Shown: one piece after another, positions 22,754 through 27,685 of the stretch | Position numbering within the stretch: the first letter of the stretch is position 1 | How the letters are laid out: the number at the start of each line of letters is the position of its first letter | Assembly: GCA_016706545.1 (NCBI GenBank) | Contig: JADJJK010000031.1 | Coordinates: 21,650 to 85,649, forward strand | Reading direction: 5' to 3' | From: Myxococcales bacterium | Lineage (GTDB): Bacteria > Myxococcota_A > Polyangia > Haliangiales > Haliangiaceae | DNA length: 64,000 bases | The notes under the pieces: generated by a model | Databases searched by the model: none | The model's input: only the letters and a program-made list of their open reading frames with translations | Told to the model about the DNA's origin: nothing | Program-made: the position numbers and the translations under genes

Positions 22754-23761
22754 TCACCGCGGCATGGCGGCGCGCAGCTCGCGGCCGGTGTAGCGGCGGC
22801 GGTCGCCGCGCTCGGCGGCGCGGACGAGTTCGATGACGCGCGCGTTGACCGGCGTCTTCACGCCATGCGCGCTGCCGAGCTTCACCACCGCGCCGTTTAT
22901 CTCGTCGATCTCGGTCGCGCACTCGCGCTCCAGATCTTCGGCCATCGAGGAGCGGGCCAGCGGGTCGATCTTGAGCGTCCGCCGCGCCAGCCGCGAGTAG
23001 AGCCAGGTTGGCAGGCGCAGCAGGGCAGGGATGGCGCCGGGGCGTACGCGAGTGAGCTGCGCCGGCGCGATGCCCGCGGCGCGCACCGCTGCCAGGCCCT
23101 CGGCCATGCACGCCGCCAGCACGCATCGGAAGTCGCGATCGGCCAGCTCGGCGACGAGCGGCACGCCCGAGAGCGCGTTGATGGGGTTGTTGAGGTTGAG
23201 CAGGACCTTGGCCCAGAGGACGGCGCGCATGTCCGGGGCAAGCCGCAGCTCCAGGTTTGCCGTCGCCCAGCGAGGCTGCAGCACGGCGGCCGCCGGGTGC
23301 GGGGAGAGGTGGAGCGCCCCCTCGGTCGCTCGGTGCCAGTGGCCGGGGGCTGGTTGGGTGATGTTGAAGGGCACCATCCCGGCGACGACGTCGCAGCGCG
23401 GCGCGCCCTGGGCTAGCTGCTGCGCGTTGTGTACGCCGTTCTGGAAGCTCACCACCTGGGTGCCTGGCCTGGCGTGCCGCGCCAGCTCGGCGATCACGCC
23501 CGGGTTGGCGCTGGCCTTGACGCACACGAGCACCAGATCTGCCTGCGCCAGGCAAGCTGGATCTGCGGTCGCGGTGAAGCGCTCGGGCGCCACCTGGACG
23601 TCGAGGCGGTCCAGATCGGTCAGCCGCAAGCCGCGCGTCAGCGGGGCGAGGAAGCGCGGCCGGCCCAGCAGCGTGACCTTGGCGCCGGCGTGGGCCAGCG
23701 CGCCGCCGAGGAACCCGCCCACCAGCCCGGCGCCGTGGACGACGACGTGGGGCTCGGTCAT
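22754..23761 (-). CDS. panE: 2-dehydropantoate 2-reductase (ketopantoate reductase)
   Basis: MTEPHVVVHGAGLVGGFLGGALAHAG Rossmann N-term, ApbA/PanE C-domain; start ATG overlaps rtcR stop (ATGA). Confidence 0.7.
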   Translation of the reverse strand: MTEPHVVVHGAGLVGGFLGGALAHAGAKVTLLGRPRFLAPLTRGLRLTDLDRLDVQVAPERFTATADPACLAQADLVLVCVKASANPGVIAELARHARPGTQVVSFQNGVHNAQQLAQGAPRCDVVAGMVPFNITQPAPGHWHRATEGALHLSPHPAAAVLQPRWATANLELRLAPDMRAVLWAKVLLNLNNPINALSGVPLVAELADRDFRCVLAACMAEGLAAVRAAGIAPAQLTRVRPGAIPALLRLPTWLYSRLARRTLKIDPLARSSMAEDLERECATEIDEINGAVVKLGSAHGVKTPVNARVIELVRAAERGDRRRYTGRELRAAMPR

Positions 23762-25437
23762 GACGCCCTCGCCCGGAGGCCGCGGCGGCGCGCGCCAGGG
23801 CGCGGCGCCTCCAGGTGCCCCCACTGCCGGAGCTTGCGCTTGAGCGTGTTGCGCTGGATGCCCAGCGCGCTGGCGGTGCGCGACAGGTTGTGGGCGCACG
23901 CCGCGAAGGCGTGCTCGATCGCGGCGCGCTCGGCCCGCTCCACCGCCTCGGCCAGCGGCAGGATGGGCCGGGGCGCCGCGGCGCCGAGCGCGGCGCGCTG
24001 CGGGCCGCGAGGCGATGGCTGGCCAACGTTCACGCCAGCGTTCACGCCAGCGTCAGCGCCGCCCGGCCCGGCGCTTGCGGGCGGCCTGCCGCTTGGCGCG
24101 CCGCTGCGTAGCTCGAGCGACAGATCGGCGAGGTCGACCTGGTCGTCGCAGAACACCGACCAGCGCAGCACCTCGCTGCGAAGCTGGCGCACGTTGCCTG
24201 GCCAGGGGTACTCGGCGAGCGCGCGCATCGCCGCCGCGGTCACCGGCAGCGGTCGCCGCGCTCGCCCGAGCGGCTCGAGCTGGAAGGCGCGGATCATCGC
24301 TGGCAGATCGGCGATGCGCTCGCGCAGCGGTGGGACGTGCAGCGCCACCCCGCTGAGGCGGTAGTACAGGTCCTCGCGGAAGCGGCCGTCGCGCACCATC
24401 TGGGCCAGGTCGCGGTGGGTCGCCGCCACCACGCGCACGTCCACCGAGATCGCGCGCTCGCCGCCGACCCTGCGCAGGCTGCGCTCCTGCAGCACGCGCA
24501 GCAGCATGGCCTGCACCTGCGGCGCCAGCTCCCCAACCTCGTCGAGGAAGATGGTCCCGCCCTGCGCCTGCTCGAATAGCCCGCGGTGCGCCTTGTGCGC
24601 GCCGGTGAAGGCCGCGGCCTCGTGGCCAAACAGCTCGCTGGCCAGCACGCTCTCGGCCAGCGCGCCGCAGTTCTCGGCGACGAACGGGCCGGCGGCGCGG
24701 GAGCTGCCCTGATGAAGCGCCCGCGCGATCAGCTCCTTGCCCGCGCCGGTCTCGCCAAAGATCAGCACAGGGAGCTCGCTGGGCGCCACCCGGGTCACGC
24801 GCGCCATCAGCGCGCGCATGGCCTCGCTGTCCGCGATCACCGCGGCGCGCCGCACCCCCGTCTCGGCGCGCAGGCGCGCCACCTCGGCGCGCAGGGCGCG
24901 GATCCGCGGAAATCCGTCGATGTCGAGCCGGATCTCGCGGACGGCGCGCGGATGTGGCCTGGGCACGAACGCCGCCGGGATGACCTGCAGCATGCGCGCG
25001 CGCAAGAGCTCCGCTTGCACGAAGATGACCCACAAGGTCTGCGCCTGCGGCGTGCCAGCAGAGAGCAAGAGATCGATCTCCGGGGTGGCCGCCGGCGCGG
25101 CCGGGCTGCCATCTCCCAGCTCGGCCACGAGCGGGGACAGCGCAGAGAAGAGCGCGGCGTAGTCGGAGGGGTCCTCGAGCGGCAGCTCCCGCACCTGCAC
25201 CTCTGGGACGTGCGTGCGCATGTCCTGGGCCAGCGCCTGCGCGCGCTGGACCCCGGCGGGCACGGTCAAGACGATGGCGCGCTGGTAGCGGAGGCGCCGC
25301 TCGGTGTGCTCGAGCAGGCGCATGACCGGCCCCCGATCGCCCGCGGGTCTCGCCGCGTGGTGCGCCGGCGCGGGCCCATCGATCCCCCGATCGGACCAGG
25401 TCAGGAGCAACCGCCGGGATGGTTCAGCACGGACCAT
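23758..25437 (-). CDS. rtcR: sigma-54-dependent transcriptional activator RtcR (N-terminal CARF-like sensor + AAA+ + Fis HTH)
   Basis: GETGAGKE, ESELFGHE, GAFTGA motifs; N-terminal DLLLSAGTPQAQTLWVIFVQAE aligns to RtcR CARF HITTGTHVAQICWFLL; divergent from rtcB; start uncertain (25437 or 25458). Confidence 0.8.
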   Translation of the reverse strand: MVRAEPSRRLLLTWSDRGIDGPAPAHHAARPAGDRGPVMRLLEHTERRLRYQRAIVLTVPAGVQRAQALAQDMRTHVPEVQVRELPLEDPSDYAALFSALSPLVAELGDGSPAAPAATPEIDLLLSAGTPQAQTLWVIFVQAELLRARMLQVIPAAFVPRPHPRAVREIRLDIDGFPRIRALRAEVARLRAETGVRRAAVIADSEAMRALMARVTRVAPSELPVLIFGETGAGKELIARALHQGSSRAAGPFVAENCGALAESVLASELFGHEAAAFTGAHKAHRGLFEQAQGGTIFLDEVGELAPQVQAMLLRVLQERSLRRVGGERAISVDVRVVAATHRDLAQMVRDGRFREDLYYRLSGVALHVPPLRERIADLPAMIRAFQLEPLGRARRPLPVTAAAMRALAEYPWPGNVRQLRSEVLRWSVFCDDQVDLADLSLELRSGAPSGRPPASAGPGGADAGVNAGVNVGQPSPRGPQRAALGAAAPRPILPLAEAVERAERAAIEHAFAACAHNLSRTASALGIQRNTLKRKLRQWGHLEAPRPGARRRGLRARAS

Positions 25438-25482
25438 GGATGGTTCATTGTAGACCATTTCAATGGTCCATAGAGAACCATC
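25421..25482. promoter_or_regulatory. cluster of inverted-repeat half-sites (perfect GACCAT-N4-ATGGTC palindrome at 25453-25468; ATGGTTCA/TGAACCAT repeats), candidate RtcR upstream activating sequence or operator
   Basis: read directly; lies 40-100 bp upstream of the sigma-54 promoter and overlaps the rtcR 5' end. Confidence 0.35.
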
Positions 25483-26999: not shown

Positions 27000-27004
27000 G
27001 CGTC

Positions 27005-27685
27005 ATGCCGTCGCTCCAGGTCTTGCAGCTCAGCTCCGGGGTCGGCCCCGTCGAGGTTCGCCGCTTCCTCGCCGCCTTGGCCGCGCACCTCGAGGCGCTG
27101 GCGGTCTCGCGCGGCCTCGAGGTGGTGGACGTGTCGTGCCACGGCGAGCCGCTTCGCCCGCGCTCGGTCTCGCTCACGCTGCGCGGCGACGCCGCCGGGC
27201 GCCTCGCCGATCAGCTCGGCACGCATGAGCTCGTGCATCGCTTTGGCGAGCGCGGCAAGGCGGCGCGCAAGCGCTGGTTCGCCGCGGTGAGCCTGCACGC
27301 GCATGGCGCCCTGGCCCCCGGGGCGCGCCACCCTGGTGGCGGCGGGCCGCCGAGGCTCACGCCGCCGCCGCGCGACGAGCTCGAGATCACCGCTTGCCGG
27401 GCCGGGGGCCCCGGCGGTCAGCACGTCAACAAGGTCGCGACCGCGGTGCGGGTTCGGCACTTGCCCTCGGGGCTGTCGGTGCGCAGCGCCGCGGCGCGGT
27501 CGCAGAAGGCAAACCTGGACCACGCCTTGATGCGGCTGGCGGGGCTCCTGGCAGACGCCGCCGCCGCCGCCGCGCAGCGCGCCGTCCGCGCGCGTCGCCA
27601 CGCGCACTACCAGGTCGTGCGCGGCCTGCCGGTGGCGAGCTACGCGCTGCAGCCCGACGGCGCGCTGACGGTGGTGCCGGCCTGA
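27005..27685 (+). CDS. prfH: peptide chain release factor H homolog (GGQ-domain protein PrfH, partner of RtcB)
   Basis: LQVLQLSSGVGPVE ~ E. coli PrfH MILLQLSSAQGPEE; GGPGGQHVNKVATAVRVRHLPSGLSV GGQ motif; no codon-recognition domain; 5 nt after rtcB stop. Confidence 0.8.
   Translation: MPSLQVLQLSSGVGPVEVRRFLAALAAHLEALAVSRGLEVVDVSCHGEPLRPRSVSLTLRGDAAGRLADQLGTHELVHRFGERGKAARKRWFAAVSLHAHGALAPGARHPGGGGPPRLTPPPRDELEITACRAGGPGGQHVNKVATAVRVRHLPSGLSVRSAAARSQKANLDHALMRLAGLLADAAAAAAQRAVRARRHAHYQVVRGLPVASYALQPDGALTVVPA

Follow-up and report, generated by a model that had tools for sequence, protein, structure and literature searches.

To our knowledge, no system other than the PrfH-RtcB2 pair both rescues ribosomes with a cut decoding centre and reseals them. 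How this pair is switched on is not described in the literature that we examined. Ribosomes cut by ColE3 or CdiA-CT are rescued and repaired by PrfH and RtcB2 (PMC9304027). For the E. coli rtcB2-prfH genes, no regulation is described in the literature examined, including PMC9304027 and PMC9223846; the term "unregulated", which the original prediction for the present locus applied to them, is too strong, and "regulation not described" fits better. The other closely related system is that of the enterobacterial Rtc genes. Activation of E. coli RtcR requires both RtcA and RtcB, bound to its CARF domain, and oligoadenylates do not activate it (PMC9650030). In a ruvA mutant, induction took place with no need for RtcA, and the authors ascribed the tRNA halves to a metal-independent nuclease (PMC7790460). 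We found no description in the searchable literature of a regulatory link between an RtcR-like activator and an rtcB2-prfH pair.

The 64-kb stretch of DNA analysed here (the window), from a genome of myxobacterial type, contains a module of three genes: an RtcR-like activator, a divergent rtcB and a prfH-like gene (Table 1). Every element of this divergent arrangement was present at or near the place where the original prediction had put it. The prfH-like ATG lies 5 nt past the rtcB stop codon (26997-26999), and three phased palindromes and one near-consensus -24/-12 element are found between the activator and rtcB. The claimed lack of rtcA was borne out within the 64 kb, where the best tblastn match with E. 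coli RtcA as the query had E = 0.1.

Table 1. Coordinates of the genes, protein domains and cis elements of the module within the window.
Feature	Position	Strand	Basis or remark
rtcR-like sigma-54 enhancer-binding protein, 559 aa	23758..25437	-	Pfam, NCBIfam, conserved N-terminus
Fis-type helix-turn-helix DNA-binding domain	23821..23943	-	PF02954 HTH_8, E 1.4e-9
AAA+ sigma-54 interaction domain	24340..24837	-	PF00158, E 7e-68
CARF-fold sensor domain, activator residues 1-193	24859..25437	-	AF2 model and Foldseek
Candidate activator-binding site 1, 1 mismatch	25419..25437		centre ~-119 from predicted start site
Candidate activator-binding site 2, 2 mismatches	25440..25458		centre ~-98; 21 nt from site 1
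Candidate activator-binding site 3, 1 mismatch	25463..25481		centre ~-75
Sigma-54 type -24/-12 element TGGCACGCTCCTGGCA	25521..25536	+	predicted start of transcription near 25547
Shine-Dalgarno-like GAGGTGG	25561..25567	+	7 nt before rtcB ATG; read from sequence
rtcB, RtcB2 (PrfH-associated) type RNA 3'-phosphate ligase, 474 aa	25575..26999	+	TIGR03073, PF01139
Pro/Ser-rich low-complexity N-terminal extension of RtcB	25575..25808	+	includes 12-nt tandem repeat at 25695-25747
prfH-like GGQ release-factor homologue, 226 aa	27005..27685	+	GGQ at 27413-27421

The activator reading frame was first called at 23758-25458 on the minus strand. Its relatives share the N-terminus MV..EP.RRLLLTWSDRG (conserved in loci L001, L003 and L004), and we therefore prefer the ATG at 25437 as its start. 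The Pfam domains Sigma54_activat, AAA_lid_14 and HTH_8 were all found, as were the Walker A (GETGAGKE) and Walker B motifs of the AAA+ domain; the GAFTGA loop has the variant form AAFTGA here and is GAFTGA in L003 and L004. The AF2 model of the sensor domain has a pLDDT of 87.5, and Foldseek matched it in the PDB to CARF proteins only (best E 8e-6), the top matches being Csm6, Cam1, Can2, ring nucleases and Cad1. The predicted layout of a CARF-like N-terminal domain, AAA+ and a Fis-type helix-turn-helix thus agrees with both the Pfam and the structural results. Its assignment to RtcR held in part: the best NCBIfam family, matched over the full length, is RtcR (NF038308), but the 327 bits fall below the cut-off of 650, and the Pfam RtcR N-domain (PF06956) scores 21.0 bits, below its cut-off of 23.1. 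Relatives of the activator do match PF06956 and are named "RtcR family" by NCBI, and identity with EcRtcR is 31.6% across residues 57-463.

The RtcB of the window matches PF01139 (E 7.5e-72) and, with 278.1 bits against a cut-off of 271.8, passes TIGR03073, the model for PrfH-associated RtcB. Of the two E. coli ligases, EcRtcB2 is the nearer, at 36% identity and 224 bits, with EcRtcB1 at 30% and 133 bits; this places it on the RtcB2 side. The positions that correspond to the metal ligands of EcRtcB1 are kept together with the guanylylated histidine (D136, C139, H236, H267, H338 and H394). H394 aligns with H294, the guanylylated histidine of EcRtcB2 (PMC9304027). The Pro/Ser-rich extension had been singled out as unusual. 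It is real in the reading frame, a stretch of about 78 aa ahead of the catalytic domain if translation starts at ATG 25575, but it is not conserved: relatives have 10-25 aa at this position, or unrelated inserts that are Gly/Thr/Ser-rich (L001) or Thr/Ala-rich (L003). To judge from these sequences, the tail is a variable low-complexity insert rather than a conserved feature.

From end to end, the GGQ protein can be aligned with E. coli PrfH, at 29.5% identity and E 6e-19. It corresponds to EcPrfH 3-197 and RF2 130-328, that is, to the recognition and GGQ domains without RF domain 1, and a 17-residue insertion lies in the linker between the two domains. The prediction that this is a PrfH homologue was upheld by tree, sequence and fold, and only partially by profile: TIGR03072 (PrfH, IPR017509) is its best family, ahead of RF2 (68.8 bits) and ArfB (49.2 bits), but the score of 118 bits is below the cut-off of 166.65. 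The top PDB matches by sequence are EcPrfH (7sa4) and CgPrfH (9mor), and the fold search gave 9mor_A as the top match and a TM-score of 0.68 to 7sa4_8. PrfH and the group to which the window protein belongs split from RF1/RF2 in 100/100 bootstraps; this group branches at the base, outside the canonical PrfH proteins, as a grade that is not monophyletic, and the canonical-PrfH profile outscores the RF1/2 profile in all 37 of its members. An RF1/RF2 identity was rejected on the basis of these bootstraps, and an ArfB identity because the ArfB match is limited to the GGQ motif. NCBI labels the relatives of the protein only as "release factor-like".

Ten positions of EcPrfH that bind the 3'-phosphate of cleaved A1493 and C1914 (residue roles from PMC9304027) are invariant, along with GGQ, in 30 clade members: G11, P12, R52, S53, R83, R88, K89, R181, H184 and R189. 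Three further contact residues are replaced in the clade, namely H85 by R/K, H86 by A/S/G and N90 by R; H86 of EcPrfH touches the 3'-phosphate (PMC9304027).

The -24/-12 element is the sole match to TGGCAC-N5-TKGCA within the 64 kb, with 0.09 matches expected from shuffled sequence and at least one match in 8 of 100 shuffles. It fits 10 of the 11 sigma-54 consensus positions (GG-N10-GC in a TGGCAC / TTGCW context), and we placed the predicted start site by the usual 12-nt spacing after the -12 C. An element in the same place and orientation was present in all 11 of the context loci examined first, and one in the same place in 53 related loci, all of which were selected at at least 8 of 11 consensus positions. 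The near-consensus promoter that had been proposed is thus unique in the window and conserved in position, and its activity is predicted. Upstream of it, three copies of a palindrome with the consensus ATGGTTC-N5-GAACCAT lie 21-23 nt apart, the most distal overlapping the first codons of rtcR. In related loci the palindromes sit at helically phased positions upstream of the promoters: these zones, 10.6 kb in all, contain 39 sites, and 485 kb of other sequence contains a single one.

Of the 12 loci of the window's PrfH grade, 11 have all three genes (activator, rtcB and prfH), with unrelated flanks, and of the 39 loci retrieved by way of the CARF domain, 32 have the divergent rtcB-prfH pair; these counts overstate the independent support since the loci are phylogenetically related. 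No locus of the CARF-domain scan contained RtcA, and the 35 canonical PrfH loci that extend 2 kb or more upstream all lack an adjacent activator. L102, L156 and L158 hold members of the activator clade with no rtcB-prfH next to them, and in L010 (Enhygromyxa salina) the pair is present and the activator absent. The link of activator, promoter and operon is thus kept in dozens of loci, whether one starts from the activator or from the pair. The wiring originally proposed stands as a conserved arrangement, and the regulation that it implies is putative.

The sequences show what the genes are, how their products fold, which catalytic and contact residues they keep, and where the cis elements lie and how well these are conserved. 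On this we base the suggestion that the locus forms an inducible module, complete in itself, for ribosome rescue and repair, a reading to which we give a probability of about 0.65. By homology to enterobacterial RtcR, the activator would bind the three phased palindromes, ~75-120 bp upstream of the sigma-54 promoter, and its CARF domain would sense RNA damage, the putative ligand most likely being RNA fragments that end in a 2',3'-cyclic phosphate, whereupon the AAA+ domain would oligomerise. ATP use by this domain would then open the sigma-54 promoter complex for transcription from near 25547, and one transcript would yield both the RtcB2-type ligase and the PrfH-like factor. By homology to E. 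coli RtcB2-PrfH, the presumed substrate would be a ribosome with its 16S rRNA cut in the decoding centre: PrfH would occupy the A site and release the peptide with its GGQ motif, allowing the ribosome to be split, and RtcB would reseal the 16S rRNA in the freed 30S subunit. The missing co-encoded RtcA fits toxins that directly leave cyclic-phosphate ends. Autoregulation of the activator is also suggested, because candidate site 1 overlaps its own start codon.

We can envisage a more far-reaching version, though we hold it to be unlikely, in which the RtcR sensor has been turned into an RtcA-independent alarm for ribosome damage. Its CARF domain would then detect rRNA or tRNA ends made by decoding-centre ribotoxins and induce PrfH and RtcB2 from a leaderless repair mRNA. 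The distance from the -12 C to the start codon of rtcB is 14-17 nt in most of the family, and the mRNA leader would therefore be only ~2-5 nt long. If this is true, such an mRNA could still be translated when Shine-Dalgarno pairing with the 16S 3' end is compromised.

Both the activator and the GGQ protein are divergent, scoring below curated cut-offs, and therefore ligand and substrate may differ from those of the known systems. With the same wiring, the CARF domain could sense another signal, candidates being an oligonucleotide second messenger, cyclic or linear, and a partner protein, for example RtcB itself. This we consider improbable. In its favour, the domain falls under the RtcR model cut-offs, its nearest solved folds are sensors of cyclic oligoadenylate, and the E. 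coli activator depends on CARF-bound RtcA and RtcB (PMC9650030), of which RtcA is absent here. However, RtcR remains the best full-length family of the activator, relatives of its N-domain match the Pfam RtcR model, E. coli RtcR is itself unresponsive to oligoadenylates (PMC9650030), and the tight link with an RNA-end ligase suits an RNA-end signal.

The substrate may differ in a similar manner, if the PrfH-like protein is a separate rescue-factor lineage and the lesion that the pair targets lies elsewhere in the rRNA or in a stalled complex whose tRNA or mRNA is damaged. The sub-threshold TIGR03072 score, the basal and non-monophyletic position outside canonical PrfH, the NCBI name "release factor-like", the linker insertion and the loss of H85, H86 and N90 would all agree with this. 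Nevertheless, ten residues that line the pockets for the A1493 phosphate and C1914 do not vary, the best fold match is a PrfH bound to a damaged ribosome and the partner ligase passes the PrfH-associated model, and a different lesion therefore seems to us quite doubtful. That the whole association is a coincidence, the activator controlling other genes and rtcB-prfH being expressed independently, is very improbable. Chance could produce one promoter-like match in a stretch of 64 kb, as the shuffles indicate, and in a few relatives the activator stands without the pair; yet promoter, palindromes and gene order are kept in dozens of loci whose flanks are unrelated, and activator and pair are associated in both directions.

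The conserved, dedicated CARF/sigma-54 activator beside the pair makes three matters directly testable: the signal that induces ribosome repair; whether an RtcR-type CARF domain can do without RtcA, a point under debate for the E. coli and Salmonella systems; and the DNA site that this activator clade recognises.

Among described release factors, the window protein is close in sequence and fold to 9mor, the Capnocytophaga gingivalis PrfH of the PrfH-CT subfamily (PMC12829566), and its 226 aa fall in the 225-250 aa class. Its extra length, however, is the interdomain linker insertion and not a C-terminal tail. The C-terminus, read directly (...ALQPDGALTVVPA), has no Lys or Arg, and thus gives no ground for expecting activity on intact stalled ribosomes. 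With E. coli ATCC 25922 (Tian et al. 2022, PMC9304027; PMC9223846) the locus shares a two-gene operon in which prfH comes directly after rtcB2, the catalytic residues of RtcB, the PrfH layout and most of the damaged-ribosome contacts. It differs in that the E. coli locus (L008) has no adjacent activator, and in the low identity and three changed contacts of its PrfH. With the enterobacterial Rtc system it shares an activator of CARF, AAA+ and Fis-type HTH layout, divergent from a sigma-54 promoter ahead of an RtcB ligase operon. In contrast to that system, the ligase is of the RtcB2 and not the RtcB1 type, a PrfH-like release factor takes the place of the RtcA cyclase, rtcA is missing from the window and from the loci found through CARF, and the activator scores below the RtcR cut-offs. 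The operons read rtcBA in E. coli and rsr-yrlBA-rtcBA in Salmonella, whereas that of the window reads rtcB-prfH. As far as sequence allows us to judge, the module consists of known parts in a new regulatory arrangement, present chiefly in genomes annotated as Myxococcota, in which the Rtc sensor module would be re-used for a second RNA-repair output and a known rescue and repair pair would gain a dedicated regulator.

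The association between an RtcR-like sigma-54 activator and a divergent rtcB-prfH pair is strong whichever partner is taken as the starting point, and it is specific to this lineage, as judged from context look-ups, a genome scan, canonical PrfH loci and a reverse test. All seven relatives of the window GGQ protein whose genomic context was looked up have genes for the activator, RtcB and an RF-1-domain protein in the same layout, among unrelated neighbours. Among the matches listed in a genome scan with one genome per species (a sample, not a census), window-like PrfH loci with the activator were L009 (a Nannocystales MAG), L011 and L013; the locus of Enhygromyxa salina SWB007 (L010) has rtcB-prfH and no activator within 4.6 kb upstream. 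Taking the window, the seven look-ups and these scan loci among the matches listed together, the activator is present in 11 of 12 window-like PrfH loci, and since the loci are related, neither this nor the other linkage counts represent independent events. The canonical PrfH sample comprised 45 loci from many phyla among the matches listed, and no activator adjoined any of the 35 in which the sequence ahead of rtcB reaches 2 kb or more. The reverse test, a metagenome scan with an alignment of the CARF domain, yielded 39 loci that extend 2.3 kb or more upstream, showing a divergent rtcB-prfH pair (32), rtcB only (3), prfH only (1) or neither (3); rtcA was absent from every locus of that scan.

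Several variants of the arrangement were seen. The activator occurs without rtcB-prfH nearby in L102, where its neighbour is a kinase-nSTAND-FGE protein, and in L156 and L158; in L160 its immediate divergent neighbour is a canonical-type prfH, and on three short contigs (L099, L108 and L116) it lies divergently to either prfH plus a fourth gene or the fourth gene alone. This conserved fourth gene encodes about 270 amino acids with the motif KVHLRVV...NYFHDTWHI and no Pfam match; in a sub-clade it overlaps the stop codon of prfH, and it is absent from the window, from the related locus L001 and from L009-L013. Among the canonical PrfH matches listed, Erythrobacter sp. NE805 (L020) is the only case with a classical rtcR and rtcB1-rtcA nearby, a few kb from rtcB2-prfH and convergent with it. 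In another sphingomonad, Novosphingobium sp. Rr 2-17 (L079), a canonical PrfH gene is no more than a few kb away from a classical rtcB1-rtcA pair; of these two loci, rtcB2 was detected beside the PrfH gene in L020 only.

Features of the window module, its surroundings and compared loci
Feature	Locus	Coordinates	Strand	Basis or remark
panE-like gene (ApbA/PanE)	window	22757-23761	minus	
Activator ORF	window	23758-25458	minus	ORF call
Palindromes ATGGTTC-N5-GAACCAT, three copies	window	25419-37, 25440-58, 25463-81		upstream of promoter; 1-2 mismatches each
Sigma-54 element TGGCACGCTCCTGGCA	window	25521-25536	plus, towards rtcB	motif search
rtcB	window	first plausible start ATG 25575, stop 26997-26999	plus	ORF call
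Tandem repeat in rtcB	window	25695-25747		
prfH-like GGQ gene	window	ATG 27005 to 27685	plus	ORF call; 226 codons, 5 bases past rtcB
158-aa ORF	window	27729-28205	minus	
MVP-like gene	window	30722-33277	plus	
rtcB 5' hexamers	L001	~6409-6530		
rtcB 5' longer repeats	L003	~6454-6780		
Inverted repeats	L010	4560-4620		
Classical rtcR, rtcB1-rtcA, rtcB2-prfH	L020	4872-12581		
Fourth gene	L003	8707-9525		
Fourth gene	L004	8636-9448		
Fourth gene	L089	5645-6673		
Fourth gene	L090	5657-6487		
Fourth gene	L091	5823-6629		
Fourth gene	L092	5651-6454		
Fourth gene	nine loci among L093-L114			

The original prediction described the window layout and promoter correctly, including the GGQ gene 5 nt downstream of rtcB, save for one correction: because relatives of the activator share the N-terminus MV..EP.RRLLLTWSDRG, its start is most likely the ATG at 25437, giving a predicted protein of 559 rather than 566 amino acids. 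The module was also said to lack rtcA, and none was found within the 64-kb window. A standard rtcBA operon can therefore be ruled out, given this lack, the family models and a ligase nearer RtcB2 than RtcB1. The window RtcB passes TIGR03073, the model for PrfH-associated RtcB (278.1 against a cut-off of 271.8), shares 36% identity with E. coli RtcB2 (224 bits) versus 30% with RtcB1 (133 bits), and keeps all metal ligands and the guanylylated histidine.

For the GGQ protein, the competing identity was an ArfB/Pth-like hydrolase, which is ruled out by family models, PDB sequence matches and the tree. Its best family model is that of PrfH (TIGR03072), at 118 bits under the cut-off of 166.65; RF2 scores 68.8 and ArfB 49.2, the latter over the GGQ motif only. 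The best PDB sequence matches are PrfH of E. coli (7sa4) and Capnocytophaga (9mor), the alignment to EcPrfH holds over the full length at 29.5% identity, and the AlphaFold model (pLDDT 85.9) has PrfH on the damaged ribosome as its top fold match. In a neighbour-joining tree of 37 window-like proteins, 44 canonical PrfH and 28 RF1/RF2, PrfH and the window-like proteins split from RF1/RF2 in 100 of 100 bootstraps and canonical PrfH formed a clade in 99 of 100; the window-like proteins are a basal grade, grouping together as a clade in just 15 of 100. From the list of EcPrfH residues that read the cleaved ribosome given by Tian et al. (PMC9304027), contacts G11, P12, R52, S53, R83, R88, K89, R181, H184 and R189 are invariant, together with GGQ, in 30 clade members, and three are changed (H85 to R/K, H86 to A/S/G, N90 to R). 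On this evidence from models, matches, fold, tree and contacts, the GGQ protein is, at the level of sequence and predicted structure, a relative of PrfH that shares its layout and most of its pocket, yet divergent enough that the exact lesion it reads may differ.

The activator, named rtcR with a CARF-like N-domain, AAA+ and Fis HTH in the original prediction, holds to that description. The protein matches Pfam models for a sigma-54 interaction domain (E 7e-68), for an AAA lid and for a Fis-type HTH, and it has Walker A, Walker B and the AAFTGA loop. RtcR is the best NCBIfam model, aligned over nearly its full length with 327 bits where the cut-off is 650, and the RtcR N-domain model of Pfam gives 21.0 where 23.1 is required. 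BLASTP aligns the protein to E. coli RtcR at 31.6% identity from residue 57, within the sensor domain. Residues 1-193 were modelled with AlphaFold at a mean pLDDT of 87.5, and the PDB folds that match this model significantly belong to CARF proteins (Csm6, Cam1, Can2, ring nucleases and Cad1); relatives of this domain bear PF06956, and some are named 'RtcR family' by NCBI. We conclude that the activator probably works like RtcR, as a divergent branch of the family below curated equivalog thresholds.

The Pro/Ser-rich N-terminal extension of RtcB, also singled out as unusual, is present as an ORF feature and is not a conserved one. It has about 78 residues ahead of the catalytic domain if the ATG in the table is the start, and 105 residues precede the GMPDLHPG motif, as against the usual 35-50 in relatives. 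Because relatives are shorter or have unrelated inserts (Gly/Thr/Ser-rich in L001, Thr/Ala-rich in the related locus L003), the tail is, on sequence comparison, a fast-evolving low-complexity insert, and a conserved functional role for it is ruled out. The 5' coding part of the window rtcB holds 4.4 tandem copies of the 12-nt unit ATGCCCTCCCCG, where L001 has GGGAWC hexamers and L003 has longer repeats coding for Thr/Ala; the three sets are in frame and mutually unrelated.

Two flanking genes, the panE-like gene and the 158-aa zinc-ribbon ORF, are rejected as module parts, having no homologue in any related locus. The ATG of the panE-like (ketopantoate-reductase-like) gene overlaps the activator stop codon (ATGA), which suggests their co-transcription. 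The convergent 158-aa ORF ends 43 nt past prfH, has no Pfam match, and encodes an Arg-rich N-terminal part and a zinc-ribbon-like CPHC...CRRC motif. Further along lies a gene for a bacterial MVP-like protein of about 850 amino acids, whose domains include the shoulder and vault repeat of Major Vault Protein (PF11978, E 1.4e-21; PF17795).

The near-consensus sigma-54 promoter expected between the divergent genes is present as TGGCACGCTCCTGGCA, the sole TGGCAC-N5-TKGCA match in 64 kb of 71% G+C, where shuffles give an expectation of 0.09. Neither sigma-70 promoters nor intrinsic terminators were found in a scan of 25300-28300. The window palindromes follow one another at intervals of 21 and 23 nt, with centres at about -119, -98 and -75 relative to the predicted start, and the first of them (site 1) covers the activator start codon. 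Across 53 related loci with a sigma-54 element upstream of rtcB, and allowing up to two mismatches, the palindrome occurred 39 times in the 10.6 kb directly upstream of promoters versus once in the remaining 485 kb, in phase near -64, -75, -87, -98, -109, -120 and -131. This enrichment and phasing fit a binding array for an enhancer-binding protein, and we regard the palindromes as candidate sites. The more distant members L009, L011 and L013 have different repeats; upstream in L010 are GGTGAAAATTTCACC-type inverted repeats resembling those of L009 and L011. The distance from the -12 C to the first in-frame rtcB ATG is 14-17 nt in 33 of the 53 loci (including L001, L003, L004, L009, L011, L090-L092 and many of L093-L172), which from the predicted start sites implies a near-leaderless rtcB mRNA with about 2-5 nt of leader. 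The window departs from this pattern, its ATG lying 40 nt past the -12 C and preceded by the Shine-Dalgarno sequence GAGGTGG.

Homology with RtcR suggests that the CARF domain would keep the AAA+ domain inactive until RNA with a 2',3'-cyclic phosphate end binds, and ligand binding would then lead to oligomerisation and open-complex formation at the promoter, as in the published RtcR model of CARF-ligand-driven oligomerisation (PMC7790460). A module without rtcA is plausible, since RtcA is dispensable for induction in a Salmonella ruvA mutant, where a metal-independent nuclease is, according to the authors, the source of the tRNA halves (PMC7790460). The signal at the window activator may differ from that in E. 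coli, where RtcA and RtcB bind the CARF domain (PMC9650030). By homology with EcPrfH and RtcB2, on which this proposal of release and 16S rRNA resealing is based (PMC9304027), the PrfH-like product would act on a ribosome cleaved between A1493 and G1494 and free its peptide, and RtcB would then reseal the 16S rRNA. The Rfam scan of the whole window gave no match, so that, unlike the Salmonella operon, it shows no Y-RNA-like element.

In the literature searched, whose scope did not extend to Burroughs & Aravind 2016 (NAR) and Maughan & Shuman 2015 (J Bacteriol), PrfH and RtcR are not named together save in reference lists or unrelated passages, and there was no match for RFH with RtcB and CARF, RtcB2 with sigma-54, or RtcR with CARF and 'release factor'. 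Papers on PrfH-RtcB2 describe no regulation. The main text of Burroughs and Aravind (2019) mentions neither RtcR nor CARF; the accessory genes named there include a TPR protein, a Pol-beta nucleotidyltransferase and proteins with N-terminal zinc fingers. We rate the parts of the module as already known, and the conserved regulatory connection, with a defined candidate binding site, as what is probably new.
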